A stretch of DNA of 52,751 bases. Origin: a virus. Taxonomy: Duplodnaviria; Caudoviricetes. Of this stretch, positions 5,553-49,123 are shown in pieces (position 1 is the first letter of the stretch; each line of letters opens with the position of its first letter). The translations under genes were made by a program, and so were the position numbers. Where the stretch lies: positions 1 to 52,751 of IMG/VR virus record IMGVR_UViG_3300032579_000020. One strand, given 5' to 3'. The notes beneath the pieces are model-generated. The model searched no databases. It was given only the letters and a program-made list of their open reading frames with translations, and had not been told where the DNA came from.

Positions 5553-5859
5553 CTACTTTTTGTACTCATTTGCGTGACAATGCTATACGCCTATTTCTGC
5601 ATACGATTTGTAGGTTCTAAATAATGGTGTCTATACGTAGGAGAGAGTAACAAAGACAGTGATGGCATAGACAGCAGTGTACGCCAGAGTGACAGTGATG
5701 TAGTGTCTTTTTCTGGTGGCGAAAAGACGTCTTGGAAAGTCTCTATAGGCTGAGTTTGCGGGACTAGTTCTGCGCGCACCGACCACCCCACCGGAGGGGG
5801 CAAGGCCCGCCCCCGCGGCCCCTGACTCCCCCCCCCCCTGCTTTCCCATAGGTGTAAGC

Positions 5860-6539: not shown

Positions 6540-7088
6540 ATGAACGATACGAACGCGGTGGCGGTTGTCGGTTCGCGGACGGTTCTCAAGAGCGGCGTAG
6601 TGAAAGAGACATTCGTGCAAAAGGGCGCGGATGGCAAGATGGCCGCTTTCGAGACTGTCATGGGTAAGCGCGAGACGGGTTTCGATGGCAAGGGCTATTC
6701 CTTCTGGCGCGGGCTGGCTGGAAAGCCGGAGTATAACGAAGCCGGTCAGATGGTGCGCGAAGCCCTTAAGGGCAAGGCCAAGAGCGAATGGGTCGAGGCG
6801 CGTATGAAAGAGCAGAATGAAATCCTCGCGCCCATGATTGCTGCGGAAGAGCAGCGGATGCAAGAGAAGGGCCTCCGCAAGCATGGTGTGCGGATGCACA
6901 ACGACGGCACGCGTGGGCGGGTTGTCTACGCTCTGCCGAAGAAGGCCGCGCTCAAGGCCAGCACGAGCGAAATGGTAGAGGCGCTGATTGCGGCGGGTTA
7001 CAAGATCGAGAAGCCCGTCGCCGCCAAGACGCAGGACGCTCAGGTTACGTCCAGCACGACGACCTATGAGCAGCAGGATCAGAAGTAA
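6540..7088 (+). CDS. Hypothetical protein, first gene of the rightward arm
   Basis: 182 aa ORF with GGAG/AGGT RBS and normal coding composition. Confidence 0.75.
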   Translation: MNDTNAVAVVGSRTVLKSGVVKETFVQKGADGKMAAFETVMGKRETGFDGKGYSFWRGLAGKPEYNEAGQMVREALKGKAKSEWVEARMKEQNEILAPMIAAEEQRMQEKGLRKHGVRMHNDGTRGRVVYALPKKAALKASTSEMVEALIAAGYKIEKPVAAKTQDAQVTSSTTTYEQQDQK

Positions 7089-7090
7089 GT

Positions 7091-8215
7091 TGCGGTAGCG
7101 GGAAAATAAGATGCTATAAAAGGCACCAAGTACCGCAGAAGCGGGGGCGCTATAAACCCCCGCACTCTTAGGCGGGCTTCACGATGCAGGCAACCAATTT
7201 AAGGTGGCGAACGGCGGGCGAGAGCCCTTAAACCTTCAACCGTGCTAAACTTTTAAGCCTGCAATCTATTTGGGAACTAATAAGTTCCGCTAGGCAATCA
7301 ATTTGGTGATACGGTGTGCACCGTGGAATGTACGACATTATGAATCGTTAGAGCGAAAGTAAAGGAGAGTACTCGGCAAGGTCAGGAGTGACGCTGGTGG
7401 CGGGGAAATTCCACTCTGTAAATACGAGCGCGATAGGTGCGGGCGTAGCCCAACGTGGGAATCACCACAAAGACTATCGGTTACAGATAAATCGCGGCAG
7501 GGGCGTTGCTCCGTAAACTGCGAAAAGAATGACGCTAACGGTTTGTTACTTAAATTCTGATAAGGCGTTCTCTAAGCAGAGACATGGCACCAGACAAGGG
7601 CATGACAGGGCGTGAATCCTGTACGTGGGTGAATCAACACCCTATAGTTTTTCTAGACTATACTCGGCAAGGGAAACCAAATCCCGCTTGAAGTGTTGCT
7701 TGTATGGGACTTCACTGGCAAATCCAAGGTAATGAAAGCCTTGGGGGTGTTTGCTTGGGATGCTGAGTATACCGCGAAAGCCGCGTGGAATGGTGGGAAC
7801 AAGTCAAACCTCCAAACCGCTGCCGATTGAGAAACTACCCCGATATTCCTAGTGGCTCCGAGCGTCACAGGCCACATGAGTTGATGGCGACTAGGACAGA
7901 CTGGCTAGAAACCTACCAGACAAACATTCTAAGGGGTATGGAGGACTATACCCTAATGAACAGCATAAGCCTAAAGACGGGCATTAACAGGGCTGGGTTA
8001 TTGTATGCCGCACAAAAGCCATCTGAATGAGATGGAATAGTAATGCGGATTTAGCTTGGCGCTTGCGAAACTCGAAGTTACTAAGAAGATGAAATAAGCG
8101 GCCATGAGACGTGAAAACCGTCAGCTATAATGGGCGGAAGCGCACCTACGGGAGCATGGGTCCGTACAACCAATGCGTGTTATACGACAGTTGCTAATAG
8201 TTGAAACAACACCAA
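7091..8215 (+). ncRNA. Candidate large structured ncRNA (about 1.1 kb)
   Basis: No ORF with a good RBS over 1.1 kb; dense hairpins and long-range stems such as TATACTCGGCA/TGCTGAGTATA. Confidence 0.45.
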
Positions 8216-8788: not shown

Positions 8789-9523
8789 ATGAAAAATAAA
8801 ATTGCATATCATTTCGTAGGTGATAAACTCAGAGACGGACGGCCGGTTCCAAAGGACGGTGAATGGCTGGAACACTTTGGGCGTATTGAAATATGTACGT
8901 CTGGTCTTCACGCATCATTCGACGCTTTCGATGCGCTTCAATACGCGCCGGGTAATACTCTTTGCATTGTCGAGGTTGATTGTATCTGCGACACGAGCGC
9001 GGATAAGTTTGTGTGCCGCAAACGCAAGATTGTAAAGCGAGTAAATTCCGAAGAACTACTCAGGAAGTTCGCAATGGACCGCGCCCTTTCTGTGATTGAT
9101 AAGTGGGATGCGCCACCTATTGTCGTGGAGTATTTAAAGACAGGAAATGAGTCGCTGCGGGCCGCAGCTTGGGCCGCAGCTAGGGGCGCAGCTAGGGACG
9201 CAGCTAGGGCCGCAGCTTGGGCCGCAGCTAGGGGCGCAGCTAGGGACGCAGCTTGGTCCGCAGCTTGGGACGCAGCTAGGGCCGCAGCTTGGGCCGCAGC
9301 TTGGTCCGCAGCTTGGGACGCAGCTAGGGCCGCAGCTTGGGCCGCAGCTAGGGACGCAGCTTGGGCCGCAGCTAGGGGCGCAGCTAGGGACGCAGCTAGG
9401 GCCGCAGCTTGGGCCGCAGCTAGGGACGCAGATAGGGCCGCAGCTTGGTCCGCAGCTTGGGACGCAGCTAGAAAAGTATTTAACGAGATGGTTAAAAAGG
9501 CGTTCGATAAAATATCTTATTGA
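8789..9523 (+). CDS. Phage protein with Ala/Trp-rich tetrapeptide repeats
   Basis: N-terminal C..GLHAS....DAL.YA.G...C.VE domain, then AAW/AAR-x repeats. Confidence 0.8.
   Translation: MKNKIAYHFVGDKLRDGRPVPKDGEWLEHFGRIEICTSGLHASFDAFDALQYAPGNTLCIVEVDCICDTSADKFVCRKRKIVKRVNSEELLRKFAMDRALSVIDKWDAPPIVVEYLKTGNESLRAAAWAAARGAARDAARAAAWAAARGAARDAAWSAAWDAARAAAWAAAWSAAWDAARAAAWAAARDAAWAAARGAARDAARAAAWAAARDADRAAAWSAAWDAARKVFNEMVKKAFDKISY
9157..9470 (+). repeat. Coding tandem repeat, 12-bp unit (about 26 copies)
   Basis: Units such as GGGCCGCAGCTT, GGGACGCAGCTA and GGTCCGCAGCTT. Confidence 0.95.
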
Positions 9524-9526
9524 TTT

Positions 9527-9640
9527 GGCGACGTATCCAATGTTCAGCGCAAGACAACGCGTACTTGCAATGGTCTGCGGATATGCACGGAGTAGCGTTG
9601 TGCACAACGTGTGTAGGTTCGAATCCTGCCGTCGCCCTCA
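9527..9640 (+). ncRNA. tRNA-like element with the anticodon loop replaced by a 34-nt extended hairpin
   Basis: Acceptor GGCGACG/CGTCGCC; T-arm GTAGG-TTCGAAT-CCTGC; anticodon stem CAACGC/GCGTTG; short variable hairpin; ends CTCA. Confidence 0.65.
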
Positions 9641-12173: not shown

Positions 12174-12262
12174 ATTAAATGGAGTCCCGCGTTCCCTTGG
12201 GTACGGACAAAACCTAATCCCACAAAACGCGGCGGCCTTTGAAACAGCCGTACTAACACTCC

Positions 12263-12333
12263 GGCCATGTGACAAAGTAGTGGCAGTGGGCAACGGAATT
12301 ATCCTGTTGGTTCGACTCCAACCTCGGCCGCCA
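12263..12333 (+). pseudogene. Degenerate tRNA or tRNA-like element
   Basis: Perfect T-arm GTTGG-TTCGACT-CCAAC; acceptor GGCCATG/CTCGGCC with 2 mismatches; G-CCA end; no canonical 7-nt anticodon loop. Confidence 0.55.
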
Positions 12334-12432
12334 ATGTTTACAGAGTCATTGCTTAAAATCTGACGACACTGCGGAAAGAACGCGGCGTTTCTCCGTTCGT
12401 ATAAACGGAGACCATTTTACAGGAGAAAACAA

Positions 12433-12591
12433 ATGATTCTAATGTTTCGCATTATTTTATGCGTAGTGGCTTCTATTATCGCAGTTGTCGCCTTCGTCTT
12501 AATAGGAGTGCTAACGGGAGAGTGTGCGAGAATTGATAAGAAGTTTGGCGGAAAAGATGGCGTGCTCGGTGCTATTTGGTACTGGATTTAA
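12433..12591 (+). CDS. Small membrane protein (52 aa)
   Basis: ACAGGAG RBS; MILMFRIILCVVASIIAVVAFVLIGVLTG... Confidence 0.6.
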   Translation: MILMFRIILCVVASIIAVVAFVLIGVLTGECARIDKKFGGKDGVLGAIWYWI

Positions 12592-12668
12592 CTGTAGAAC
12601 ACAATGACAATACTCGAATGGATGGGCGTCGCTGCAATGGCGGCGCTTCTTCGTTGGTCGGTGAAGCA

Positions 12669-13001
12669 ATGAAGCGCATCGCCTGCTACGGCTCCCTCAA
12701 GAAAGGCTTCTGGAACCACTCGCGCTTTGGTAATATGACATTCGTCAGGAACTACACAATCAATGGCGTGCAGTTGTATCTTAGCTATGCTCCGTATCCG
12801 TTTGCCATTCAGAACGGCGGCTCCGTTGATGTGGAAATCTATGACGTTGACGAGAAGCTGTACGATATGCTGGACATGATGGAAACCGGAGCTGGCTATC
12901 ACGCAGTCACCATCGGAGACGCCGTGATTTGGGTGTACGACAATCCGCCAACCGGCTCAAAGAAGTTTGAGGGAACAAACTGGAAAGGAGAGCATCTGTG
13001 A
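12669..13001 (+). CDS. Gamma-glutamylcyclotransferase (AIG2-like)
   Basis: IACYGSLKKGFWNH...YP......VEIYDV......LD.ME...Y. Confidence 0.85.
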   Translation: MKRIACYGSLKKGFWNHSRFGNMTFVRNYTINGVQLYLSYAPYPFAIQNGGSVDVEIYDVDEKLYDMLDMMETGAGYHAVTIGDAVIWVYDNPPTGSKKFEGTNWKGEHL

Positions 13002-13393
13002 GACTGACAAAGAAACGACTGCACCACGCGAACGACATTGTTGATTGCTGGTCTTCATACAATTATGCGCCAAGCCTTCCGTTCATATGCGCGTATGTAC
13101 AGTACGCATCCGGTGTAGAGCCGACCAACAAAGCTGCGAAGGAAATCGCGCAGAGGGTCGAGCGATATATGTGGGAGTCGAAGCAGTTTTGTGTTGAGTA
13201 TTGCAACCTCACCAAGATGAATGTGTTTTCGCTTTATGGCAGGCGTGATTGCGACCCTGTGTTCGACACGGTATCGTCGTACCCATGGACTGGCGTATCC
13301 AAGAACCGCGGTAAGTGGGGTCCACTAAGTAAAGACGACCTAGAATGCTTCAAGTACTGCCTTTTGGAGAACCGTGACAAGATTCGACGCTGA
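12998..13393 (+). CDS. Hypothetical protein (YPWTGVSKN family, copy 1)
   Basis: GTGA overlap; shares YPWTGVSKN...WGPL...L..F with 15981..16478. Confidence 0.7.
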   Translation: MRLTKKRLHHANDIVDCWSSYNYAPSLPFICAYVQYASGVEPTNKAAKEIAQRVERYMWESKQFCVEYCNLTKMNVFSLYGRRDCDPVFDTVSSYPWTGVSKNRGKWGPLSKDDLECFKYCLLENRDKIRR

Positions 13394-13420
13394 CGAGCCT
13401 TGGTATCTACCGGCTCTTTC

Positions 13421-13457
13421 GACCATAGTCTTACTGGCTATGGTCTTTTTTGTTTTC
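13421..13457 (+). terminator. Intrinsic terminator
   Basis: GACCATAGTC-TTACT-GGCTATGGTC then TTTTTTGTTTT. Confidence 0.75.
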
Positions 13458-13472
13458 TGGAAGTGAAGAATT

Positions 13473-13504
13473 GTACCTATAGCTCAACTGGACCGAGCGC
13501 GGTT
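13473..13504 (+). pseudogene. 5' half of an interrupted tRNA (Arg-type)
   Basis: GTACCTA-TA-GCTC-AACTGGACC-GAGC-G-CGGTT gives acceptor 5' strand, full D-arm with GGA (A20) and the anticodon-stem 5' strand; ends at the HNH stop codon. Confidence 0.75.
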
Positions 13505-13982
13505 ATCGCGGCAGATTGTCAAACTCCCAATGACAGTTTGGGCAAAGCTGTATTATGTTTTGCGGTGAGTTCACCTCTGAAAGAATTGCAGTGTCAGGGA
13601 ATGAGTTAAGCGGCTTTATATGGCACAGCTCCACGTGCTTATCATATCCACACTTAGCGCAGGGTAGAAGCTTTAGGTCTTTGTTCCATTGTCTAGACAT
13701 CTGCCTAACCTGAGCGTGAACCCACGAACCATGACGCCCAGATAGGTGTAGCGCCGTCCTGTATTGCCCTATAGTCCTGTTCTTTATCTTCCTGTCTAGG
13801 TATTCACGTTGGCACTTGTCACACCTGCTGTGTTTAAACGAGCTTCTCTGACTTCCGCACACAGAGCAAGGGCGAACAAGCTTTCTCTTCGGGAAAAGAA
13901 CATTGTTATATTTAGCGGAGCACGATCTGCAACAAAACGATGGATTGCGCGTCTCTAAACCACAGCACTTACACTTATTCAT
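13503..13982 (-). CDS. HNH endonuclease (putative homing endonuclease), antisense within the rightward arm
   Basis: N-terminal CxxC...FCCRSC Zn motif; CAKCG.....ELCHIKP...N...N...LCPNCHWEFD; GGAG RBS. Confidence 0.9.
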   Translation of the reverse strand: MNKCKCCGLETRNPSFCCRSCSAKYNNVLFPKRKLVRPCSVCGSQRSSFKHSRCDKCQREYLDRKIKNRTIGQYRTALHLSGRHGSWVHAQVRQMSRQWNKDLKLLPCAKCGYDKHVELCHIKPLNSFPDTAILSEVNSPQNIIQLCPNCHWEFDNLPR

Positions 13983-13992
13983 AGATACTCCC

Positions 13993-14069
13993 GCGTCTGT
14001 ACCAGTCCGTTCTCCTAAAGCGGAAACTGTAACCGGATTATGCAGGTTCGATTCCTGTCAGACGCGCCA
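13993..14069 (+). tRNA. Non-canonical tRNA-Arg(CCU) with rearranged D-arm
   Basis: Acceptor GCGTCTG/CAGACGC; G-CCA end; T-arm GCAGG-TTCGATT-CCTGT; anticodon arm CCGTT-CTCCTAA-AGCGG; D-loop-like TAACCGGAT lies 3' of the anticodon arm. Confidence 0.75.
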
Positions 14070-14071
14070 TT

Positions 14072-14100
14072 ATAATAGCATTCTATGTTAATTCGGTCAA
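14072..14100 (-). promoter_or_regulatory. Sigma70-type promoter driving the HNH gene
   Basis: TTGACC-17 nt-TATTAT with extended -10 TGn. Confidence 0.7.
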
Positions 14101-14111
14101 CAACAATGCGT

Positions 14112-14148
14112 ATTCGAGTCGCAAGTTCAATTCTTGCCGGGTACGCCA
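14112..14148 (+). pseudogene. 3' half of the interrupted tRNA
   Basis: ATTCG-AGTC-GCAAG-TTCAATT-CTTGC-CGGGTAC-G-CCA; the acceptor strand pairs with GTACCTA at 13473 (6 of 7 pairs). Confidence 0.75.
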
Positions 14149-14228
14149 ACTAGTAGAACTATGATTCCATTCATCGTCATCATGCTGGTCATCTACTTCG
14201 TTCTTGTTTGTGAACACGGAGACAATGT

Positions 14229-14501
14229 ATGAAGGCAAAGAAGAACAAACGCTGGACAATCAAGCACCAAGAAGACGACTCGTTCAAGCTGTCTCCGCAT
14301 AAGTCGCTGCCGTATCGAGACGGCAAGACACTTGACTGCATCGTAATCAAGAAGGAAGACTCTCTTCGCCATGCAATCATGGAGAAGATTTACAACGAGC
14401 GTGCTGCGGAACACAAGATTCCGGTATTCTTCGAGACGTTCAGGTTTCAGCGCGGGAGCGTTGAGTACGATCTTTGCGTCGCGTGTTGGGAGATTTTATG
14501 A
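14229..14501 (+). CDS. Hypothetical protein
   Basis: GGAG RBS; coupled to the YopX-like gene. Confidence 0.65.
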   Translation: MKAKKNKRWTIKHQEDDSFKLSPHKSLPYRDGKTLDCIVIKKEDSLRHAIMEKIYNERAAEHKIPVFFETFRFQRGSVEYDLCVACWEIL

Positions 14502-14926
14502 ATACACCGAACAGATTCAGATTTAGGGCGTTTGACACTAAGAACAAGCGCATGGTCGAGATTAAAGAAGCAAAAAGCAATACCTCTCTTATTGCTATGT
14601 GTTCTTTCGGCAATCAGGTTGGGTTCATAAACGCAGACGGCTCAACGTTTTGGAGTCCATTCTGCGTGATGATGCAAAGCACCGGCCTATCCGACAAGAA
14701 CGGCAAGGAAATATTCGAGGGTGACATCGTTAGTGTTGACGGGTTTGAGCCAAATCGAATGCTGGTAGAGTGGGTTGAGAGCGCGTGGTGTATGACTCAC
14801 CCGTCACTAAACATGCCGATTGAGTTTACGTTCTTAGAGGACAGCACTGGCAAGCAGTCTGTGGTTGTCGGGAATATCCACGAAAATTATGAGCTTTTGA
14901 AAGGAACAAATGCGAGTATACATTGA
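14498..14926 (+). CDS. YopX family protein
   Basis: FRFRAFD, MQSTGLSDKNGKEIFEGDIV, VVGNIHEN. Confidence 0.9.
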   Translation: MNTPNRFRFRAFDTKNKRMVEIKEAKSNTSLIAMCSFGNQVGFINADGSTFWSPFCVMMQSTGLSDKNGKEIFEGDIVSVDGFEPNRMLVEWVESAWCMTHPSLNMPIEFTFLEDSTGKQSVVVGNIHENYELLKGTNASIH

Positions 14927-15506
14927 TGGTGACGGGGTTCGGCACGTATCTCACCTGCCTGACGGCGAGAACGAATACGAGGAACAGTTCTTTAAGCCAG
15001 CGCGGCGTCCTCGCTTCACGGAGCGTGGCTACCGTATGTTTTGGGGCGGTGCGGACATCAACCCGAAGCTGTACGGAGAGAAGGCGCAGAAGGAAACACA
15101 CTTCTCGCTTGATGCTGACAGGCAAGACCTTGCAACGTATCGCAAGTGCATTGACCTAGACCTTGGCGCTGTTGGCATATGCCGTGGTTGCCAGTTCCTT
15201 TGGGCAATGTCAGGTGGTAGGTTGATGCAGGACATCGTTCCGCGCCATCCGTCGCCGCATGGAGTCAGGGGTACTGTTGACTTCTTCGTGAACAGCTACC
15301 ACCATCAAGGCTGCATTCTGACCAACGGAAAGCCGCCTGATGGTTTGGAGGTTCTTGCAACGCACGGAGACATCGTTGAGGCGTACGCCGGAACCAACCA
15401 TGATGGAGTTCGCGTCATGGCCGTGCAGTGGCACCCCGAAATGCTGCATGATAACTTTGCTTGCTCTCGCTGGTTTGACAAGAAAATAAAGGAGATGTTC
15501 GGATGA
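14910..15506 (+). CDS. Class I glutamine amidotransferase (peptidase C26 / PuuD-like)
   Basis: GGADINPKLYGE, GICRGCQ, VNSYHHQG, VQWHPE. Confidence 0.9.
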   Translation: MRVYIDGDGVRHVSHLPDGENEYEEQFFKPARRPRFTERGYRMFWGGADINPKLYGEKAQKETHFSLDADRQDLATYRKCIDLDLGAVGICRGCQFLWAMSGGRLMQDIVPRHPSPHGVRGTVDFFVNSYHHQGCILTNGKPPDGLEVLATHGDIVEAYAGTNHDGVRVMAVQWHPEMLHDNFACSRWFDKKIKEMFG

Positions 15507-16006
15507 ACGGTTCAGTATTCGGAGATAATGTTGTTGCACCCAAGGAAGGCGACATGGTGATGACAAAAACGGCAAATGGCTCATGCACTCACCTTGAGCT
15601 GTACGGATTTTGGTCGGTTAAAGGTTCCCAAGGTTGGAAAAAGATACCGGAAGACAAGAAGATGGTTGACTTTGAAGCGCGAAGACTTGATACAGCAGAG
15701 CAGCTTCTTGGGCTTCAATGTTTTAGCGGAAGCACCAAAATATATGCAGATAAAGATACGCCAGCATCACGCTGTGGATGGCTTGGCTACAAGATAATCT
15801 CCTGCCTAGTAACGGAAGAACAGAATATGCAGGCCATCCTTGAGGACCTAGGGTTCAAGACAGGCTTCGTTTCTGGAACTGGACAGAACACAATGCACCC
15901 AGGAACTACACTGATTCTGATGGCCGCTGACCCTGCCGTTCTCCACAAGCGGTGCCTAGAAGTGACAAGTAAAGGAGTTTATGTCAAAAAAGATAAAGCT
16001 ACCTGA
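15503..16006 (+). CDS. Hypothetical protein (possibly a degenerate GNAT fold)
   Basis: Coupled ORF; Q...AILEDLGFK motif. The fold guess is weak. Confidence 0.6.
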   Translation: MNGSVFGDNVVAPKEGDMVMTKTANGSCTHLELYGFWSVKGSQGWKKIPEDKKMVDFEARRLDTAEQLLGLQCFSGSTKIYADKDTPASRCGWLGYKIISCLVTEEQNMQAILEDLGFKTGFVSGTGQNTMHPGTTLILMAADPAVLHKRCLEVTSKGVYVKKDKAT

Positions 16007-16478
16007 GAATCCTCCGCACAAATACGCCATCTTCGTATGGCGCACAAAGCTCGGACGCCACGGACTAACGCTGCCAATGCTGGCGGCGTTTTCTCTTTGG
16101 TACAAAGGTGGTAACTTCGAGGACATCGAAGAGGTCCGCAAAGAGGCGATGCTGATCGGTGACGAGATGTACGAGCATCCTGATTGCGCGTTTCCTGTTT
16201 GCAGGAGAAATGAAAAGCGCGGAAAGATTGGTCCGGGATTTGATGTTGTTGGTGTTGACCCAGTTCCGACCAGAATCCACCACTTCACATGCGGGCGCAT
16301 AGGCGAGCTTGTGTTTGCCCTGAACACTGGCGGTATTCCGATACAACGCAGGCTGGCAATGCCTCGCTATCCTTGGACTGGTGTCTCAAAGAACAACGAC
16401 GCGTGGGGTCCGCTAACTGCGTGGGACTTGACGTTCTTCCGTTGCGTCAAACACTTCATGGAGAAAGGAAGCATGTAA
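15981..16478 (+). CDS. Hypothetical protein (YPWTGVSKN family, copy 2)
   Basis: AAGGAG RBS; shares the motif with 12998..13393. Confidence 0.7.
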   Translation: MSKKIKLPENPPHKYAIFVWRTKLGRHGLTLPMLAAFSLWYKGGNFEDIEEVRKEAMLIGDEMYEHPDCAFPVCRRNEKRGKIGPGFDVVGVDPVPTRIHHFTCGRIGELVFALNTGGIPIQRRLAMPRYPWTGVSKNNDAWGPLTAWDLTFFRCVKHFMEKGSM

Positions 16479-16702
16479 TGGCCGGTATACGCAAGTTCTT
16501 CGGCGAGGTTGACGAGAAGACGAACGAAGTGAAAGGCGCATTTCGTTTCGGCGCTGTTACCTTCTATCAATACTGTCTTCGCCACATCGAGGGTTTCTTC
16601 CAATGGCGTGAAATCAAATATCACGGTGAAATCGTGCTATGGCCGCACATCATGGGCAAGCCGCTGGACTATGACAAGGACTTATTTGGGAGCAACCAAT
16701 GA
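16478..16702 (+). CDS. Hypothetical protein
   Basis: TAATG coupling; MAGIRKFFGEV... Confidence 0.6.
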   Translation: MAGIRKFFGEVDEKTNEVKGAFRFGAVTFYQYCLRHIEGFFQWREIKYHGEIVLWPHIMGKPLDYDKDLFGSNQ

Positions 16703-16920
16703 AAGTATATCGCAATCTTGTCGTCAGCGTCATTAAGACAGTGGATGGCGTTGCGATGGTGCATGACGGCAGCGGGAACGTATTCGAGGTCAATGAAAAG
16801 GAAATCATTGCATACCCCGAGGCAGAACTTGCTTCATGTGTAGAGCGCGATATGGCCTGCACATACTGCCCTCATAACAAAGACGGGTGTACGCGTGTCA
16901 AAGAAAAGAGCTTTGCATGA
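16699..16920 (+). CDS. Hypothetical protein
   Basis: ATGA coupling; GGAG RBS. Confidence 0.6.
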   Translation: MKVYRNLVVSVIKTVDGVAMVHDGSGNVFEVNEKEIIAYPEAELASCVERDMACTYCPHNKDGCTRVKEKSFA

Positions 16921-17315
16921 TATGGAAAACAGGTGAACCCGGCTCGAACTGCTCTAAGTGTGGCGGGAAAGTAGAGGGGCTTCTTGTTGCATCTCAGGGA
17001 ATAATTCGCACCTGCGCCGGATGTTTCATCGAAATCTCGCCTGATGGCCCAATAGCTTGGGAGGCGGCTAATTTCTTCGGGTGCTCTGAAGACAAGTCTA
17101 TTGAGTTTGCTGAACATATCATAAGCGAGCTTGAGACGTATGGAATAATTTTGGGGCGCAGAGAGAGGCTGTGCCCTATTTGCTTTGGTTCTGGAAAGAT
17201 TTATCAGGGCCAGAAATGCAGCCTGTGTAGCGGCAGTGGAACGTTGGACTGTAAGGCGTGCGGAAACAAGGGTTTTAATACTGTGGGGCAAAAATGCCCT
17301 ATCTGCAATCGGTAA
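16917..17315 (+). CDS. Zn-finger protein with DnaJ-type CxxCxGxG repeats
   Basis: CPICFGSG, CSLCSGSG, CKACGNKG, CPIC. Confidence 0.7.
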   Translation: MIWKTGEPGSNCSKCGGKVEGLLVASQGIIRTCAGCFIEISPDGPIAWEAANFFGCSEDKSIEFAEHIISELETYGIILGRRERLCPICFGSGKIYQGQKCSLCSGSGTLDCKACGNKGFNTVGQKCPICNR

Positions 17316-17325
17316 GAGGGAAAAG

Positions 17326-18480
17326 ATGAAGAAAAACAAGAAGGTTCTGACGCGTGAGCTGGCTAAGTTGGCGCAAAATCACGGCAATTTATTGATGGGT
17401 GGTGATGTGGAGGCGTTCGCCATCGGTCCTGATGGTGTCGTTATCCCAGCGGATGCCGCCGGGTTCTTCCCGTACTCGCGTGAATACGTCAGGCCTGTTG
17501 GCGAAAGCCAATATCACAAAGTATTTGCGGATGGTGTTCAGGTTGAACTCAATTTCACTCCCGCAACTTGCCGTGACGGCATCGTTCTCTCGATGAATCG
17601 ATCAGTCAATGAGTGTATTCAGTACGCAAGTCGCAAGAGGGCGGCCAAGATGCACGCGCTGTCGGCGGTCAAGATGACTCAGGCGCAGATTGACGTTGGT
17701 CAATACCTGTCCCATGTCATGGGCTGCAACCCGGACTTCTCGGCGTACACCGACACCCCAAACCGTCCCATTGAGGACTACGCTAATCATCCGATTCGCA
17801 CCGCTGGTTATCATGTGCAGTTCGGCAAGTGTGTGAATCCGGAATACGAAAAGAAGTTCGCCAAACTGTGCGACAGAATCGTTGGACTCGTTGCCATGTG
17901 GGGCGACCGCGATGAGTCGCACAGGCTCCGTAAGGGCGACGGCGTTGGACTCGCTGGCTGCTACCGCAATCATCCGGCAGATGCAAACCCACGCTTCGAG
18001 TACCGCACCTGCGGTTCGTTCTGGCTCCGTAAGGCGGCTCTGTCTCACGCGCTGTTCGGAATGGCGCGGATGGTGCATCACATTTGGGAAAGCGGCATGG
18101 CTGACGTTGTGATTGACCAGATCGAAGACGACGAAGCCCGTGCAGCCATCAACAACTGCGACAATGATGCCTGCAAGGCGCTGTTTATGCGGCTGCTTCC
18201 GTTCCTGTCTGATGTGGCGGTCAACATCAAGGACTGGCAGTTGCCAATTTCAAGTTGCAATAACACGGCCTACGCCTCGTACACACCCATACGAGACAAG
18301 GAGCGTACATTCCAGCTTGCTGCGCTGGTGTGGATGCTGGACGGAAACATGAAGTTCGATTCAGAACTGAACGACTTCACCGCCGGAGATTACTATGGCT
18401 GGAATAACTACTCGCACGCGCAACTTAGATACAATGCCGCCTATCGCAAGTTCGAGACCGAGTTCATGGCGAATCTGTAA
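17326..18480 (+). CDS. phiEco32-like COOH-NH2 ligase (type 2)
   Basis: GGDVEAF, DGVQVELN, GCNPDFSAY, RTAGYHVQFG, GLAGCYR, FEYRT. Confidence 0.85.
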   Translation: MKKNKKVLTRELAKLAQNHGNLLMGGDVEAFAIGPDGVVIPADAAGFFPYSREYVRPVGESQYHKVFADGVQVELNFTPATCRDGIVLSMNRSVNECIQYASRKRAAKMHALSAVKMTQAQIDVGQYLSHVMGCNPDFSAYTDTPNRPIEDYANHPIRTAGYHVQFGKCVNPEYEKKFAKLCDRIVGLVAMWGDRDESHRLRKGDGVGLAGCYRNHPADANPRFEYRTCGSFWLRKAALSHALFGMARMVHHIWESGMADVVIDQIEDDEARAAINNCDNDACKALFMRLLPFLSDVAVNIKDWQLPISSCNNTAYASYTPIRDKERTFQLAALVWMLDGNMKFDSELNDFTAGDYYGWNNYSHAQLRYNAAYRKFETEFMANL

Positions 18481-18496
18481 AAAGACCGGAGGCAGT

Positions 18497-18721
18497 ATGA
18501 AGGAACTCGTTCTGCATATGTACAGAACGCTTCTGAGCAAGAAGTTCAGGAGCGAGTCTCAAGCAAAAGAGGCTTTGACAGCTCGCATCCGTAACGGTCA
18601 GACACGCGAGGAAGCCATCACATCAATGTACGTATCGTATGTTGATGTGTTGCTGGGGATGAAGGCACCACACGCAGACGACCAAGAGGATGTGCTTCAA
18701 CTTGAAAATCGACAGAATTAA
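18497..18721 (+). CDS. Hypothetical protein
   Basis: GGAGG RBS before MKELVLHMY... Confidence 0.6.
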   Translation: MKELVLHMYRTLLSKKFRSESQAKEALTARIRNGQTREEAITSMYVSYVDVLLGMKAPHADDQEDVLQLENRQN

Positions 18722-20141
18722 GTGCAAGTGCAACTCGCCAGCAATAGGGTTTGTGCTAGATGTGCCGATCTGCAAGCAATGCTTCCGTCGTGACTACACA
18801 AGGTTCGGTGAAGGCTTCGAGCTTCGCAAGAACGTAGTCATTGAAGAGGGCGGAAGCCTTCGCAGGCGCGACGAGGTGCACGAACTCATAGACCCAAAGA
18901 CCGGGCGAAAGATTTACTCACGCAACCGATACGAGATTCGGGGGCAAGGGTTTGTGTCAGAGAAAACTCTGACAAGCGCTGTTGAAAGTCGAGAGGTTAT
19001 TGAAACCCACAGAGGCTTTTATCGAGCAGGAGACCTTGTGTACGACGACTTCGGAAGACCGTTTCCTAAGGAGTATGCTCTAAAGTATTCCCGTAAGTGC
19101 GCGTCTTGTGGCAAGGCGTACACAGTTTCAGGTGGTCAGCAAACCATGTCGGAGACAATGTGCTTCGAATGCCAAGTAAAGAAAGGATGCTCGTGCCAGA
19201 ACTGCGGAAAGCCTTTCACGCCAAACCCTCAGATTAGATCAATGTTAATGCTTGGCATTGACAAGTACATCTATGGTTACTGTCCTGCGTGTGTAGAGAA
19301 AAGCCTGCCGTTTGTGTATCACGGAAAGAAGGAGGTAGAAGGAACAGGCAGGACCGTAGGCGTTGAGGTAGAGTGCGAGCCTACGGTTGGCTCCCAGCTT
19401 GAACTTGCCATGTGGGGCGACAAGGAGCATATGGTGACAGGGATTACCGACGGCTCGCTACGAGGGAAGTTCCCGTGCGAGTTTGTGTCGCCAATTCTGC
19501 ACGAGTCGAACTATGAATGGTGGCTTGGCGAGTTCGGCAAGCGTCTGAACGCAGTTGTTTATATGCGCTGCGGGCTGCACATCCACATCGGAACGCAGGA
19601 GTTCGGGTGGTTCGAGATGAACAACCTGATGCGCTACCTGAAGAAGTACGAGCAGTTCTTCTTTAGCGTGGTGTCTCCGTCTCGCAGGCTTCCAGAGGTT
19701 GTGAACGGAAACAACGCAGGTCTTCCGGTTACACTGCCAGACATCCCTGCATTCCATAGCCGAGAAGATTTGCTGGACTGGTGCTATGGCAGGTCTAGGG
19801 TTAAGCAGAGCATTGGGAGTAACATTCACAAGACCAAGCGGTGCAACGACAGGGGTGCTAAGTACGATGGCAACCTGAACAGGTATCAGTGGGCCAACTT
19901 TCACGGGCACTGGTTCAAGGGTGCTATTGAAATCAGAATTCATCAAGGCACATCCAACGTCCAGAAGATTGCTAACTGGATGGAGTTCTGGTTCAACATC
20001 ATTCCTCACGCTGCCCTGCCGGAAGAGAAGTGGAAGCACCCGCTAAAGGTTATTCCGAAGCACCTAGAGGTGTACTACCTCGATAGAATTGAACGCTTTA
20101 AAAAGCTGGCTAAATCTGGCCTAGTTCAACGTTTGCAATAA
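18690..20141 (+). CDS. Putative amidoligase with N-terminal Zn fingers
   Basis: GVEVEC, TDGSL, EFVSPIL, CGLHIHIG, RY.WAN, IEIRIHQGT. Confidence 0.88.
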   Translation: MCFNLKIDRIKCKCNSPAIGFVLDVPICKQCFRRDYTRFGEGFELRKNVVIEEGGSLRRRDEVHELIDPKTGRKIYSRNRYEIRGQGFVSEKTLTSAVESREVIETHRGFYRAGDLVYDDFGRPFPKEYALKYSRKCASCGKAYTVSGGQQTMSETMCFECQVKKGCSCQNCGKPFTPNPQIRSMLMLGIDKYIYGYCPACVEKSLPFVYHGKKEVEGTGRTVGVEVECEPTVGSQLELAMWGDKEHMVTGITDGSLRGKFPCEFVSPILHESNYEWWLGEFGKRLNAVVYMRCGLHIHIGTQEFGWFEMNNLMRYLKKYEQFFFSVVSPSRRLPEVVNGNNAGLPVTLPDIPAFHSREDLLDWCYGRSRVKQSIGSNIHKTKRCNDRGAKYDGNLNRYQWANFHGHWFKGAIEIRIHQGTSNVQKIANWMEFWFNIIPHAALPEEKWKHPLKVIPKHLEVYYLDRIERFKKLAKSGLVQRLQ

Positions 20142-20158
20142 GAAAGCAGGGTACTTAA

Positions 20159-21712
20159 GTGTGTGGAATTTGGGGCGGATTTAACGGCGAGACCTATAGG
20201 AATATGGTTCTCGCTATTCTGAACATTGAGCGTGGACGCGATTCGTTTGGCTTCACTACGGAGAACGAGAAGGGAGACGGGTACGACATTGGTCACGGAC
20301 TAGGCTCAATCGTTCAGGCAATGAAGGATGAGGGGTTCCCGATGGATGTGTATAGCAAGAAGATGTTTCTCGGGCACACCCGAAACTCGTCGGTTGGTAC
20401 GGTTACTCTTAAGAATGCCCATCCCTTCACCAGCGGGCACATTACTGGTGCGCACAATGGAAGGGTTGCAAACTTCTGGATTCTAAAGAACGAATACAAA
20501 GACCAGCACAAGGAGGTTGACGCCTTCGACGTTGACTCTGAAATCATCTTCTGGCTTCTGAACGAGTTTGGCGTGAATGCGCTGGCTCGGCTTGAAGGAC
20601 GCATCGCTTGCTGGTGGGTGGACGACAGGAAGCCGGGCAAAGTGTTTGCGTGGATTTGGAATCAGGACTTCGCTGTGGCATTGAAGCCATACCCTGCGTT
20701 CTCGTCTGACGACAACCATCTGCGCGTTGCTGGATTCGATGACATCAAGAAGCTGGAAGACACTGGTCAGTTAATCAAGTTCGACATGAAGGAGGCAGAC
20801 AAGGGATTTACTCAGGTGGCGTTTATACCGGGGCACACGGCTCCCATTGTCACGGTCAAAGACAATCGCATTTCATGGCCTTCTGATACAGGTTTCATAC
20901 AGTATCCAAATACCAAGAAGTCCCTTAATGATAAAGAGATGACCTGCATTGGCAGGGTGTGGGACGTGGCTTCGCAGGACTGGATAAAGCCTAAGGCGTT
21001 TTTGAACGCAGTCAATGACGACGGAGTTACAGACAGCGACGAGAAGCATCGCGTTATACTGTCGTCGATACATATCGGAGCCAGCGTGTATCAGTGCGCC
21101 TCGTGCCATGAGATGGTTACAAAGAAGCACACCACACAGAACGCTGCGTGTCAGGACATCCATAGCGGTTGCGGCGGAGTATGCGAGCAGCCAATAGCTG
21201 GCGTCATGTATGACCTAAGACAAGTAGCCTCGTCTGAGATTGCCAAGTTTGTTGGCAAGGTTGAAACAAGGTTTCATCCTCGGGAGATTCGTGCTTTTAT
21301 AAAGAATGATAGAACTATTCTTACCCAAAAGGAGTCAAAACAAACTGAGGCAACCGCAGGGAAACAACTGCACCTTCCAATCGGGGCAGAGATTAGGAGC
21401 ATCTGCGACATCTGCCTTGGTTGCCAGCTTAAGACGCCAGACCTTGTTCTAGCTTCGTGTGCCACGTTCCGACACGTTGACGGAGCCAGTATGTGCAAGA
21501 TGTGCATTTCAGATTGCCAGCTAATTGGAAAGGGACACAGCATCGTCGGGTGCAGGACGTTCAGAGCTAGGATAACTCAGGAGCGACCTCAGTTGAAGGA
21601 GCTGCTCGGAACGACCGTGGATGGATGGGAAAACCCATGTGATAAATGCGCCATTGAGTACTGCTATAAACGTGGAAAGGTATTGGACTGTTCGGAGGCT
21701 ACACCGTTCTAA
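20159..21712 (+). CDS. Class II (Ntn) glutamine amidotransferase with Cys-rich C-terminus
   Basis: N-terminal CGIWG, RGRDSFG, GHTR, NAHPF, HNG, VDSE. Confidence 0.9.
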   Translation: MCGIWGGFNGETYRNMVLAILNIERGRDSFGFTTENEKGDGYDIGHGLGSIVQAMKDEGFPMDVYSKKMFLGHTRNSSVGTVTLKNAHPFTSGHITGAHNGRVANFWILKNEYKDQHKEVDAFDVDSEIIFWLLNEFGVNALARLEGRIACWWVDDRKPGKVFAWIWNQDFAVALKPYPAFSSDDNHLRVAGFDDIKKLEDTGQLIKFDMKEADKGFTQVAFIPGHTAPIVTVKDNRISWPSDTGFIQYPNTKKSLNDKEMTCIGRVWDVASQDWIKPKAFLNAVNDDGVTDSDEKHRVILSSIHIGASVYQCASCHEMVTKKHTTQNAACQDIHSGCGGVCEQPIAGVMYDLRQVASSEIAKFVGKVETRFHPREIRAFIKNDRTILTQKESKQTEATAGKQLHLPIGAEIRSICDICLGCQLKTPDLVLASCATFRHVDGASMCKMCISDCQLIGKGHSIVGCRTFRARITQERPQLKELLGTTVDGWENPCDKCAIEYCYKRGKVLDCSEATPF

Positions 21713-22518
21713 TGAAAAAGATTGTAAAGTATAACTGTATCGAGACGATGAAGAAGATCATCGCTCACATGAAGCAGAAGGTTGATGTTGTTGATTCGCT
21801 GAACGGTGATGCCTTGACTCATCTGATACGTTATGGCAACACTCAACCGTTCGACAACGCTGACCTGACGTATAACTGGCAGTCAGCTATTCTCAACGCC
21901 GCCGACAAGATTGACGCTCGCCGACTGATGAGGGCTGCTGGTGTTATGATTCCGCGCACAGTCCTGCCTGACGATGATGTTGGCATTATGCAACTCATCG
22001 GAAAGTGGATTGCTCGCCCGTCAGAACACTTCGCTGGCTCCAACTTCGAGGTGATTGTTGGGCGCAAGAAGGCACGCGAGTTCTTGGACAACGGCTGGTA
22101 CCTGTCGAAGATATTCAAGAAGGAGCGCGAGCTTAGGATTCACTGCGCCCACGGCAGGGTGCTGCTGATTCACGACAAGGGCATTGATGGCCGCACACTC
22201 AACAGCAACACTAACACAACGGCAGACTGGTCAGTACTTGAGTGGAAAGATTATCCGTTGCTGGCGTGTCAGCAAGCGTTGAAGGCTTGCGATGCCTTGG
22301 GACTGGATTGGGGCGGAGTGGATGTTCTAACGCACGGAGACGACTGTGTTGTGCTCGAAGTCAACACTGCTCCGTCTGTTCCGGGTCAGATAGGCCCGAA
22401 GAAATATGCTCGCTACTTCGACTGGTTGCTGTCGTCTGACAAGCGCCGCGAGCATTACGATTGGAAGAAAATCAAAACAGGCCATGATATGCCTTGGAGA
22501 CACGAAGAGCTAAAATGA
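21712..22518 (+). CDS. ATP-grasp ligase (RimK-like)
   Basis: DK.......GV..P, ELRIHC, ALGLDWGGVDV, VLEVNTAP. Confidence 0.88.
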   Translation: MKKIVKYNCIETMKKIIAHMKQKVDVVDSLNGDALTHLIRYGNTQPFDNADLTYNWQSAILNAADKIDARRLMRAAGVMIPRTVLPDDDVGIMQLIGKWIARPSEHFAGSNFEVIVGRKKAREFLDNGWYLSKIFKKERELRIHCAHGRVLLIHDKGIDGRTLNSNTNTTADWSVLEWKDYPLLACQQALKACDALGLDWGGVDVLTHGDDCVVLEVNTAPSVPGQIGPKKYARYFDWLLSSDKRREHYDWKKIKTGHDMPWRHEELK

Positions 22519-48145: not shown

Positions 48146-49123
48146 TTAGCCGATGATACCGGCGCGGAGAATGGTCGGACGACCACAACCCACACCCATA
48201 GCAAACCGGACACGCTGCCGGACAATATCCGGGCCATCGTTCCAAGTCTCGATGGACGGACGCACGCGCCACAGGAATTGCAGCTCGTTGTCAGAACTCT
48301 TCGGGTCGCCCGCCCAATAGAAGATGTACGGGCTGGTCAGATGGTTGTATACCTGATACTCGAACCGACCACGGAAGAAGTTCGCAGCATTCATGGCATC
48401 CGTTGGGCGAAGATCGCTCTTGAGGATTGTCCAGATCGCCTGCTCGTCAATAGGACGAACGATGATCTTCTTCATGGTCAGAGGACTGAGCTTATCACGC
48501 TCATCACGGTTGGTGGCAAAGTTGATTGCCGCAGCGTACAACGAGGTCGGTGTAATCGCCGAGGTAGCTTCAACATTGCTCCAAGTACCGGCAGGAGCAT
48601 AAGCGTTAGGACGGCCAGAGTCAATCAGGTACATACCGTCTTCGCAAACGAACGGGGCACCAGAAGTGCCGAGCGCACGGTTGAACACGTCTGCCATAAC
48701 CAGCTCAACGGTATCCGTGGCAGACCGCAGGAGTTCCTGCTGCTTGTCATTGATCGAACCGTAGAGTTCAAGTTCCTGCAACTCGCGCTCAACAGCGATG
48801 CCGCCACGGAAGACGTTCGTGGTGATGCCGTAACCGAAGCCAAGACCCTTCTCGTCATACGGGAGCATATCCACGTCACGGTTCTGAGACACAAGGCCCA
48901 TGCCGAAGTGACTCTGGAACTTCATCGTCTGGTGGTCGGTATTGCGGACACGGAAGTACTGGTCGCCCTGCATGGGCATTTCCCAGCGCCGTTTGAAAAC
49001 TTCGTCCAGACCTTTCTGAAGGACTGCACCGAAATTATCCTTAACCAGCACGCCTGGGTGCGAGGCTGAAACGCTGCGCGCACCATGCACCAGCGGTGTA
49101 TTACCAAGATCAACAGTACTCAT
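48146..49123 (-). CDS. Major capsid protein (HK97 fold, Mu gpT-like)
   Basis: 325 aa after scaffold and cement genes; A.VFN.A......DG..L....., N...G..E..V...LT, R.RF..G motifs; strongly biased codons. Confidence 0.8.
   Translation of the reverse strand: MSTVDLGNTPLVHGARSVSASHPGVLVKDNFGAVLQKGLDEVFKRRWEMPMQGDQYFRVRNTDHQTMKFQSHFGMGLVSQNRDVDMLPYDEKGLGFGYGITTNVFRGGIAVERELQELELYGSINDKQQELLRSATDTVELVMADVFNRALGTSGAPFVCEDGMYLIDSGRPNAYAPAGTWSNVEATSAITPTSLYAAAINFATNRDERDKLSPLTMKKIIVRPIDEQAIWTILKSDLRPTDAMNAANFFRGRFEYQVYNHLTSPYIFYWAGDPKSSDNELQFLWRVRPSIETWNDGPDIVRQRVRFAMGVGCGRPTILRAGIIG

Follow-up and report, generated by a model that had tools for sequence, protein, structure and literature searches.

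The Caudoviricetes record IMGVR_UViG_3300032579_000020, a complete virus record in IMG/VR, is 52,751 bases long and carries direct repeats of 127 bp at its termini; the whole of this stretch, referred to here as the window, was analysed. The subject of this report is a 77-nucleotide (nt) element on the plus strand, designated E1, which carries the parts of a tRNA-Arg(CCU) gene with the segments of the D-arm in an unusual order. E1 lies beside a minus-strand gene for an HNH endonuclease and between two further tRNA-like elements, E0 upstream and E2 downstream (Table 1). Judged from its sequence, the locus resembles a small array of tRNA genes, all of them possibly of arginine type, into which a homing-endonuclease gene has intruded, and at least two of the three members can no longer decode. 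The flanking gene products belong to a plus-strand cluster that surrounds the tRNA-like elements (12576-22518) and includes a gamma-glutamyl cyclotransferase, two amidotransferases, a COOH-NH2 ligase, an amidoligase, and a RimK-like protein.

Table 1. Positions of E1, its segments under the permuted numbering, and neighbouring features in the window.
Feature	Coordinates	Strand	Basis or remark
E1, whole 77-nt internally permuted tRNA-Arg(CCU) element	13993..14069	+	sequence, fold, position mapping
Acceptor 5' strand GCGTCTG (positions 1-7), then U8 and A9	13993..14001	+	identical to bacterial tRNA-Arg(CCG) in L083, L084
D-stem 3' strand CCAG (positions 22-25; 14002-14005) and U26 (14006), fused straight to A9	14002..14006	+	position mapping
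Anticodon arm CCGTT-CTCCTAA-AGCGG (positions 27-43), 5-bp stem, loop CU-CCU-AA	14007..14023	+	sequence, position mapping
AAA, equivalent of variable-loop positions 44-46; bulge in long hairpin	14024..14026	+	fold, position mapping; U26-A44 pairing possible
Relocated 13-nt block: D-stem 5' strand CTGT (positions 10-13; 14027-14030) and D-loop AACCGGATT (positions 14-21; 14031-14039) with A14, A15, G18, G19, A20	14027..14039	+	position mapping
AT, equivalent of positions 47-48; U48 able to make Levitt pair with A15	14040..14041	+	position mapping
T-arm (G53, T54, T55, C56, A58, C61), acceptor 3' strand, G73, encoded CCA	14042..14069	+	25-mer match, position mapping
HNH endonuclease open reading frame, 159 amino acids, 10 nt from E1	13503..13982	-	PHROG 2255, E = 3.6e-5; Pfam HNH_2, E = 1.1e-8
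Sigma-70-like promoter match TTGACC, 17 nt, TATTAT, with TG	14072..14100	-	consensus only; 3 sites against 2.1 expected in region
Terminator-like hairpin upstream of E1, same strand	13421..13445	+	consensus match only
E2, 39-nt minihelix: 7-bp acceptor stem (two G-U), AGTC, canonical T-arm, G, CCA	14110..14148	+	sequence
E0, degenerate tRNA-like element; good T-arm, 3' acceptor strand, G, CCA	12263..12333	+	ARAGORN tRNA-Arg(acg) only at -ps80

Structure and permuted gene order of E1

Most features of a canonical tRNA are present in E1. The 7-bp acceptor stem, formed by GCGTCTG (13993-13999) and CAGACGC (14059-14065), is Watson-Crick paired at all seven positions. The T-arm, GCAGG-TTCGATT-CCTGT (14042-14058), consists of a 5-bp stem with four Watson-Crick pairs and one G-U pair closing a TTCRA-type loop, and it is followed after the acceptor strand by a discriminator G at 14066 and an encoded CCA at 14067-14069. 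The 5-bp anticodon stem likewise combines four Watson-Crick pairs with one G-U pair and presents a 7-nt loop in which C32, U33, the anticodon nucleotides C34, C35, and U36, the purine A37, and A38 are all found. The departure from the cloverleaf lies between these elements. TAC separates the acceptor strand from CAGT (14003-14006), which leads directly into the anticodon arm; on the 3' side of that arm, AA is followed by ACTG (14026-14029), the partner of CAGT, and the 12-nt connector TAACCGGATTAT then separates ACTG from the T-arm. The D-arm hairpin that cloverleaf order would place at positions 9-26 is absent, with only 5 nt lying between A9 and the anticodon stem. An initial sequence-only reading of the stretch had listed these segments and described the element as having intact stems and a normal length; each piece was found in its place, for a total of 77 nt, with an acceptor stem paired 7/7, a 5-bp T-stem, a 5-bp anticodon stem, and a 3-bp D-stem. 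The minimum-free-energy fold of E1 contains the acceptor stem, a 9-bp bulged hairpin bearing the anticodon loop, an open connector, and the T-arm, at -23.3 kcal/mol (z = -2.11), with 7 of 200 shuffled sequences equally or more stable.

Canonical tRNA positions were mapped onto E1 by position only, with no rebuilt sequence, and under this mapping the gene order is 1-9 / 22-46 / 10-21 / 47-76. Two internal blocks are thus exchanged, one of 13 nt comprising the 5' strand of the D-stem and the D-loop, and one of 25 nt comprising the 3' strand of the D-stem, the anticodon arm, and the first three nucleotides of the variable loop. The sequence and the mapping together bear out the earlier proposal that the two D-stem strands have traded places so as to enclose the anticodon arm, and the mapping agrees with its placement of a GG-bearing D-loop, with an A20 equivalent, where the variable loop normally sits. 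In the permuted numbering the D-stem is formed by C10-G25, U11-A24, and G12-C23, with a U.C mismatch at 13/22. Further tertiary partners are available as U8-A14, the Levitt pair A15-U48, and U26-A44, with G18/G19 opposite U55/C56, and A20 and a 5-nt variable loop are also present. The conserved set U8, A14, R15, G18, G19, Y48, T54, U55, C56, and A58 is complete in E1, but only by the permuted numbering.

The probability that such an arrangement would arise by accident was gauged in several ways. When flanking sequences were randomized, 94 of 400,000 trials supplied the D-stem together with A14, R15, G18, G19, A20, and Y48, even with six frames allowed. An extension of the anticodon stem by four Watson-Crick pairs across a bulge of at most 2 nt was found in 1.9% of random flanks, and in 9.4% when G-U pairs were allowed, and such an extension taken alone is only suggestive of a non-chance origin. 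Among three-break rearrangements of a 76-nt tRNA, approximately 180 of 67,525 spare every helix, a figure that is the author's own count rather than the output of a tool.

The ends of E1 connect it with a specific bacterial tRNA. The 25-mer at 14042-14066 occurs at two loci in a collection of genomes from 185,579 species, both belonging to small low-GC betaproteobacteria, and at each it lies inside a canonical 76-nt tRNA-Arg(CCG) gene and is followed by CCA. Comparison of the 77-nt E1 with this 76-nt bacterial tRNA-Arg(CCG) reveals that the first 9 and the last 28 nucleotides are identical, while the central 40 nt are unalignable. A covariance model built from E1 alone (R1) matched all 59 genomes of the host-like bacterial family, with a best score of 43 bits against 111.8 bits for E1 itself, and the six best of these matches, which were inspected, were all canonical 76-nt tRNA-Arg(CCG) genes with the acceptor strand GCGTCTG. 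The identity set for bacterial tRNA-Arg comprises A/G73, A20, C35, and U/G36 (PMC9976931). Of these, G73 is found at 14066, C35 at 14015, and U36 at 14016 in E1. The GG is followed by an A, at 14037, just as it is in bacterial tRNA-Arg D-loops, and this A may be displayed as A20 in the permuted backbone. By these sequence resemblances E1 is tRNA-derived. Separately, G+C content is approximately 50% in the phage and 34-39% in the examined loci of the bacteria that share the tRNA-Arg ends (G001/G002).

These observations identify E1, with high confidence, as a tRNA-Arg(CCU) gene bearing an internal, non-circular permutation in the order given above.

Recognition, occurrence, and relation to known tRNA variants

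The sequence-only reading had suggested that standard tRNA finders may miss or mis-score E1, and both ARAGORN and Rfam do miss it. ARAGORN reported no tRNA gene in the entire window, and none at E1 even with the relaxed setting -ps50. Rfam models gave no match to E1 at the gathering score; under permissive settings the best match within the tRNA clan (CL00001, which includes RF00005) was to tRNA-Sec, which scored 29.2 bits where the cut-off is 47. The hallmarks of a tRNA pseudogene, broken helices and lost invariant nucleotides, are present in E0 and absent from E1, but a very young relic would pass this test as well.

Several other identities for the element were considered and set aside. The tRNA-Sec family (RF01852) was rejected because the anticodon is CCU and not UCA, the score is below the cut-off, and the variable-arm pairs in the alignment are non-standard. 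A 55-nt parse offered by ARAGORN in mitochondrial mode (13995-14049) was dismissed because it passes over the true acceptor stem and the T-arm. Inspection excluded a simple inversion of the central part of E1, since the reverse complement of neither the middle nor the hairpin interior yields a canonical arm. Finally, a phage attachment-site (attP) core for integration into a tRNA-Arg gene does not account for the 5' acceptor strand, U8, and A9 that are also there; no integrase family was matched among the 30 open reading frames (ORFs) scanned, and the record has terminal repeats.

The sequence itself appears to be sound. Twenty listed sequencing runs from 18 studies of lake or fresh water contain the stretch, with no RNA run among them, and Logan contigs from all four of the runs examined cover E1 with no differences (e.g., 13883-14800; 13993-14143). 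Because these independently assembled contigs agree exactly, E1 is not an assembly artefact or chimera. The four runs are represented by contigs without differences and therefore give no information on microdiversity.

Searches for a second element of this kind were made at several levels and recovered only E1. A pattern combining the connector with the T-loop had no match in IMG/VR, and one holding the anticodon loop at a fixed spacing from the T-loop had a single IMG/VR match (L082), which is unrelated. With both stems left free, a pattern of anticodon loop, bulge, and connector found nothing in metagenome contigs or in genome contigs, and the 19-mer of the anticodon arm had two matches in genome contigs, neither of them a tRNA. 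When the 77 nt were compared by blastn with 50,697 GenBank phage records, 1,270 records matched in the T-arm region only and none reached 80% query coverage. A scan for a D-strand and D-loop directly preceding a T-arm, limited to D-strands that start with GCTCAG, returned 25 IMG/VR loci, none with the order found in E1; four were class II tRNA-Leu variable arms, several were tRNA-like pieces without an anticodon arm, and the remainder were chance matches. A structure descriptor applied to 252 sequences (1.97 Mb) gave 59 parses, 46 of them with the canonical spacing of 18-21 nt, and no second E1-like element. Six parses had a spacing of 12 nt or less, namely four sub-parses of normal tRNAs, one mis-parsed tRNA with an insertion (L095 at 7071), and E1, which is the only one in which the anticodon arm begins 7 nt past an intact acceptor strand. 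Across 200 sources (1.73 Mb), the next best match to R1 after E1 (111.8 bits) was a canonical tRNA at 30.5 bits.

Relatives of the phage were also sought. Searches with exact peptide words from the amidotransferase and the terminase found none, the terminase is at most about 25% identical to those of GenBank phages, and four IMG/VR records having a YopX-like gene in common with the phage lack the terminase. Profile-based searches for related loci recovered distant ones only, at 49% identity or less. Closer relatives do exist, as revealed by the amidotransferase homologues P0002 (61% identity) and P0003 (59%; encoded on a 51,154-base contig).

These searches brought to light other unusual tRNA-like elements. 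Many unrelated phage contigs with a YopX-like gene (L003-L081; e.g., L019 near 4094 and L005 near 3402) carry tRNA-like elements approximately 1 kb downstream of that gene. These are conserved among the contigs, join an acceptor stem to a T-arm through a short linker that contains GG, have no anticodon arm, and are mostly missed by ARAGORN; no Rfam family was found at such elements in the 16 loci scanned. GOLLD RNA (266-276 bits) adjoins odd elements bearing a T-loop at L028 4823-5218 and L081 5876-6269. In a metagenome contig of which 12.5 kb was examined (L095), a dense array holds nine tRNAs recognized by ARAGORN along with several tRNA-like elements that have insertions or missing arms and score near or below the Rfam cut-off (e.g., 1775-1867, 5584-5681, 6585-6679, and 7072-7163). 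The IMG/VR loci L259/L283 and L266 have tRNA-like elements with an acceptor stem, a normal D-arm, and a T-arm, from which the anticodon arm is absent.

Among known systems, circularly permuted tRNA genes are an obvious comparison. These occur in algae and one archaeon, with the 3' half of the gene located upstream of the 5' half, so that the mature termini lie inside the precursor (PMC3978253). Like them, E1 has its segments in a non-canonical order and keeps every structural element, and the origin proposed for them, duplication followed by loss, resembles the one proposed below for E1. In circularly permuted genes, however, a bulge-helix-bulge (BHB) motif and a circular RNA intermediate restore the cloverleaf, whereas in E1 the acceptor 5' strand comes first and the 3' strand and CCA come last, with only 10-21 and 22-46 exchanged. 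Because a single circularization cannot restore the canonical order, the mature RNA of E1, if there is one, would stay permuted. BHB motifs are processed by a splicing endonuclease that is not known to be a bacterial enzyme.

A second comparison is with the D-armless mitochondrial tRNA-Ser(GCU/AGY), in which a short linker pairs with a vestigial variable loop and thereby extends the anticodon stem (Kuhle et al., 2022, PMC9427863). In secondary structure E1 resembles that tRNA, with an acceptor stem, a short linker (3 nt in E1), an extended anticodon stem (5 + 4 bp interrupted by a 2-nt bulge in E1), and a T-arm. In the human mitochondrial tRNA-Ser, neither the D-loop nor the tertiary core nor the canonical T-loop survives, and the stem is extended by one pair only. 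E1 differs in retaining a canonical T-loop and a full D-loop (A14, A15, G18, G19, A20) placed in a 12-nt connector, in adding three to four pairs, and in residing in a phage genome. The topology of E1 as a secondary structure is thus not without precedent, because a D-armless tRNA with an extended anticodon stem is known from metazoan mitochondria. No Rfam family matched at the gathering score, and in the papers searched no precedent was found for a D-loop and tertiary nucleotides kept in a permuted place. A full-text literature search combining armless or D-armless tRNAs with phage returned only mitochondrial papers or general tRNA reviews.

Engineered tRNAs provide a third point of reference. 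Circularly permuted tRNAs were reportedly constructed by Pan and Uhlenbeck in the early 1990s to study tRNA folding, and the fold is said to tolerate chain ends at many positions, the principle on which a permuted-core reading of E1 depends. Each of these molecules was made in the laboratory and had a single new pair of ends, while E1 is natural and has three changed joins. E1 lacks at least one defining feature each of a canonical tRNA, of tRNA-Sec, of a D-armless mitochondrial tRNA, and of a circularly permuted tRNA gene. It is a bacterial-type tRNA gene with internal segments exchanged and no obvious way back to the canonical order.

Neighbouring elements and possible decay of the array

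The tRNA-like elements on either side of E1 look like wreckage. E0 has an acceptor stem in which five of seven positions are paired, weak D- and anticodon stems, and an A at position 33. E2 starts 40 nt downstream of E1 and lacks a D-arm, an anticodon arm, and the greater part of the variable loop. Over 32 nt, its 3' portion shares 87.5% identity with a tRNA-Arg from Methylophilales phages. When 25-mers taken from the 3' portions of E0 and E2 were looked up in the genome collection, no exact match was obtained. The HNH gene product has a homologue (28.8% identity) encoded within the tRNA array of Salmonella phage FelixO1, where the gene abuts a tRNA-Ile. In both phages an HNH gene of the same family stands beside tRNA genes, and some members of the array are defective. 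The stretch of FelixO1 displayed contains 15 tRNA features, which are ordinary and 75-88 nt in length, whereas the present window contains no canonical tRNA and its best-preserved member is permuted.

Such surroundings invite the explanation that E1 is a young pseudogene, in which rearrangements in a small, HNH-invaded tRNA array scrambled a canonical tRNA-Arg(CCU), leaving an inert product that is intact only for lack of time. The adjoining HNH gene, whose FelixO1 homologue lies among tRNA genes of which one is marked as a pseudogene, together with the decayed E0 (5/7 acceptor stem, A33) and the armless E2, makes this explanation nearly as likely as function, and it has to be regarded as a real possibility. 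The rejection of E1 by ARAGORN and Rfam, the lack of a conserved homologue in the collections searched, and the lack of a visible plus-strand promoter near E1 are also what would be expected of a relic. On the other hand, a random change with three breaks would seldom keep every helix and tertiary nucleotide (94/400,000 random flanks; ~180/67,525 in the count described above), the 37 flanking nucleotides still match at every position a tRNA that a bacterial family conserves, and the sequence is invariant in the contigs of all four runs examined. Dead DNA tends to be deleted from phage genomes, which are compact, and this too counts against a relic.

A different explanation starts from what E1 and E2 have in common. 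The 7-bp acceptor stem, canonical T-arm, G73, and CCA are shared by the two elements, and the rest is entirely different. Both lie approximately 80-240 nt upstream of an ORF at 14229, and E0 lies approximately 100 nt upstream of an ORF at 12433. Both might accordingly have been kept not for decoding but for an acceptor/T-arm top half ending in GCCA, which could serve as an RNase P or tRNA-processing signal for cutting the transcript upstream of the following genes, as a decoy for a tRNA-Arg-binding enzyme or a defence nuclease, or as an antisense leader of the HNH mRNA. A minihelix with CCA suffices for bacterial RNase P, and the promoter-like site on the minus strand (Table 1) would make E1 part of an antisense HNH leader. 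Such a role seems unlikely, however, as it would have no need of the anticodon arm, the D-stem, A14, A15, G18, G19, A20, or U48, all of which are present in E1; moreover, E0 was found by a T-loop search, so that the shared top half is in part an effect of ascertainment.

Additional observations were made in the vicinity. A perfect 7-nt complement of the 3' end of E0 (12326-12332) lies 88 nt upstream, at 12231-12237. A hairpin resembling a D-arm is found on the plus strand at 14086-14102, 7 nt upstream of the E2 acceptor strand, with a 4-bp stem and a 9-nt loop that opens with AA and contains GG. Its loop doubles as the -35 hexamer of the minus-strand promoter-like site, and the hairpin may be due to chance or may be another displaced tRNA piece. 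At 9566-9637 (+), within an ORF, a T-loop-like site was called by ARAGORN as tRNA-Thr(tgt) only at -ps80 and with several mismatches, and is probably either fortuitous or an ancient remnant. The window contains 12 occurrences of the motif GTTCRANTC, where 3.5 would be expected. A weak match to the Rfam family freshwater-2 (21.2 bits against a cut-off of 49.9) lies at 12369-12435 (+), in the leader of a 52-amino-acid hydrophobic ORF, and at 9099-9541, inside an ORF, a 12-nt unit is repeated in tandem at least 25 times, which corresponds to a 4-residue protein repeat. Ten large ORFs were scanned against PHROG, and the six without a family match are all on the minus strand.

A possible function for the permuted RNA

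If E1 is transcribed and stable, its RNA would be expected to use the same D-stem partners as a normal tRNA, with the D-stem closing over the anticodon arm to give one long bulged hairpin and the D-loop offered from the connector just 5' of the T-arm. The permutation creates three new joins, 9 to 22, 46 to 10, and 21 to 47, and each of them connects residues that are neighbours in the core of normal tRNA crystal structures. In that core, U8-A14 stacks on the 13-22-46 layer, 26-44 sits between the anticodon stem and the 10-25 pair, and A21 and residue 48 flank the 8-14 and 15-48 layers. Because the new joins link core neighbours, the same tertiary structure is possible along the new path. The strand running through 43, 44, and then 10 would continue the helix, with 45 and 46 bulged out, and the usual contacts U8-A14, A15-U48, U26-A44, G18-U55, and G19-C56 could form along a different strand path. 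Since engineered circular permutations of tRNA are said to fold, a permuted fold is plausible. The RNA would then be matured by RNase P and host enzymes, charged by arginyl-tRNA synthetase (ArgRS) through G73, C35, U36, and the displaced A20, and used to decode AGG, a codon that is frequent in the phage. Such a gene could have originated in two steps, the first being insertion of a copy of the 13-nt block into the variable loop to give a tRNA with a long variable region, and the second being deletion of the original block.

Codon use in the phage was examined with ORFs picked by a crude greedy rule. AGG accounts for 156 of 14,757 codons (10.6 per 1000) and for 20% of arginine codons, compared with 7.9 per 1000 in host-like loci, and it is commoner than AGA in the phage, while AGA is dominant in the host-like loci. 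Within the phage AGG is commonest in the plus-strand genes around E1, at 15.7 per 1000, and rare in the large minus-strand genes. Arginine codon use differs strongly overall, with CGC at 16.5 per 1000 in the phage and 2.1 in host-like loci.

A number of points weigh against a decoding function. E1 is a single sequence for which no homologue was found, and it consequently offers no covariation and no sign of purifying selection. The host-like genome already contains a canonical tRNA-Arg(CCU), and the likely major structural genes of the phage have few or no AGG codons, as exemplified by the ORF at 48146-49123, with no AGG and 24 CGN codons. With respect to expression, a consensus search of the region revealed no good plus-strand promoter match near E1, a terminator-like hairpin lies upstream on the same strand, and the best promoter match, on the minus strand, would drive a transcript antisense across E1 into the HNH ORF. 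Both E0 and E2 are plainly unable to decode, which suggests an array in decay. The argument from clean breakpoints may be weakened by a mutational mechanism that favours breaks at helix bases, a recent rearrangement in a dispensable gene would look intact too, and an ascertainment bias applies, E1 having been flagged for its intact look. Lastly, in one review tRNAs without a normal D-arm are reported for mitochondria only, with none bacterial or phage, and the word "phage" does not appear (PMC7609411).

In favour of a working tRNA stand the intact helices, the presence of all conserved and identity nucleotides, and the low rate at which random flanks reproduce them (94/400,000). The isotype is also coherent, in that the acceptor stem and T-arm are identical to those of a bacterial tRNA-Arg and the anticodon, CCU, is an arginine anticodon. 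The near-equal length of E1 and the bacterial tRNA, the small share of three-break rearrangements that spare every helix, the frequency of AGG in the phage, and the exact agreement of contigs from all four runs examined point the same way. On balance, a working AGG-decoding tRNA with a permuted backbone may be taken as the most likely single outcome, though only tentatively. Its RNA could possibly represent a natural topological isomer of tRNA, with the same helices and contacts, that is charged by ArgRS and reads AGG on the bacterial ribosome. The changed path might in addition confer immunity, at the level of the gene, to the adjacent HNH endonuclease or, at the level of the RNA, to a host nuclease aimed at tRNA-Arg.

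The significance of E1 lies in its position outside the recognized categories of unusual tRNAs. Known disrupted tRNA genes, whether split, intron-bearing, or circularly permuted, are repaired to a cloverleaf in the RNA, and armless tRNAs are known only from mitochondria with co-evolved partners; E1 fits neither pattern. If it proves to be dead, it would provide a clean snapshot of tRNA-gene scrambling in endonuclease-invaded phage arrays. If it works, E1 would show that the tRNA fold and the bacterial translation machinery tolerate a rewired backbone, would supply a natural example for a question so far approached only through engineered permutations, and would reveal a class of tRNA genes that is invisible to ARAGORN and the Rfam tRNA models.

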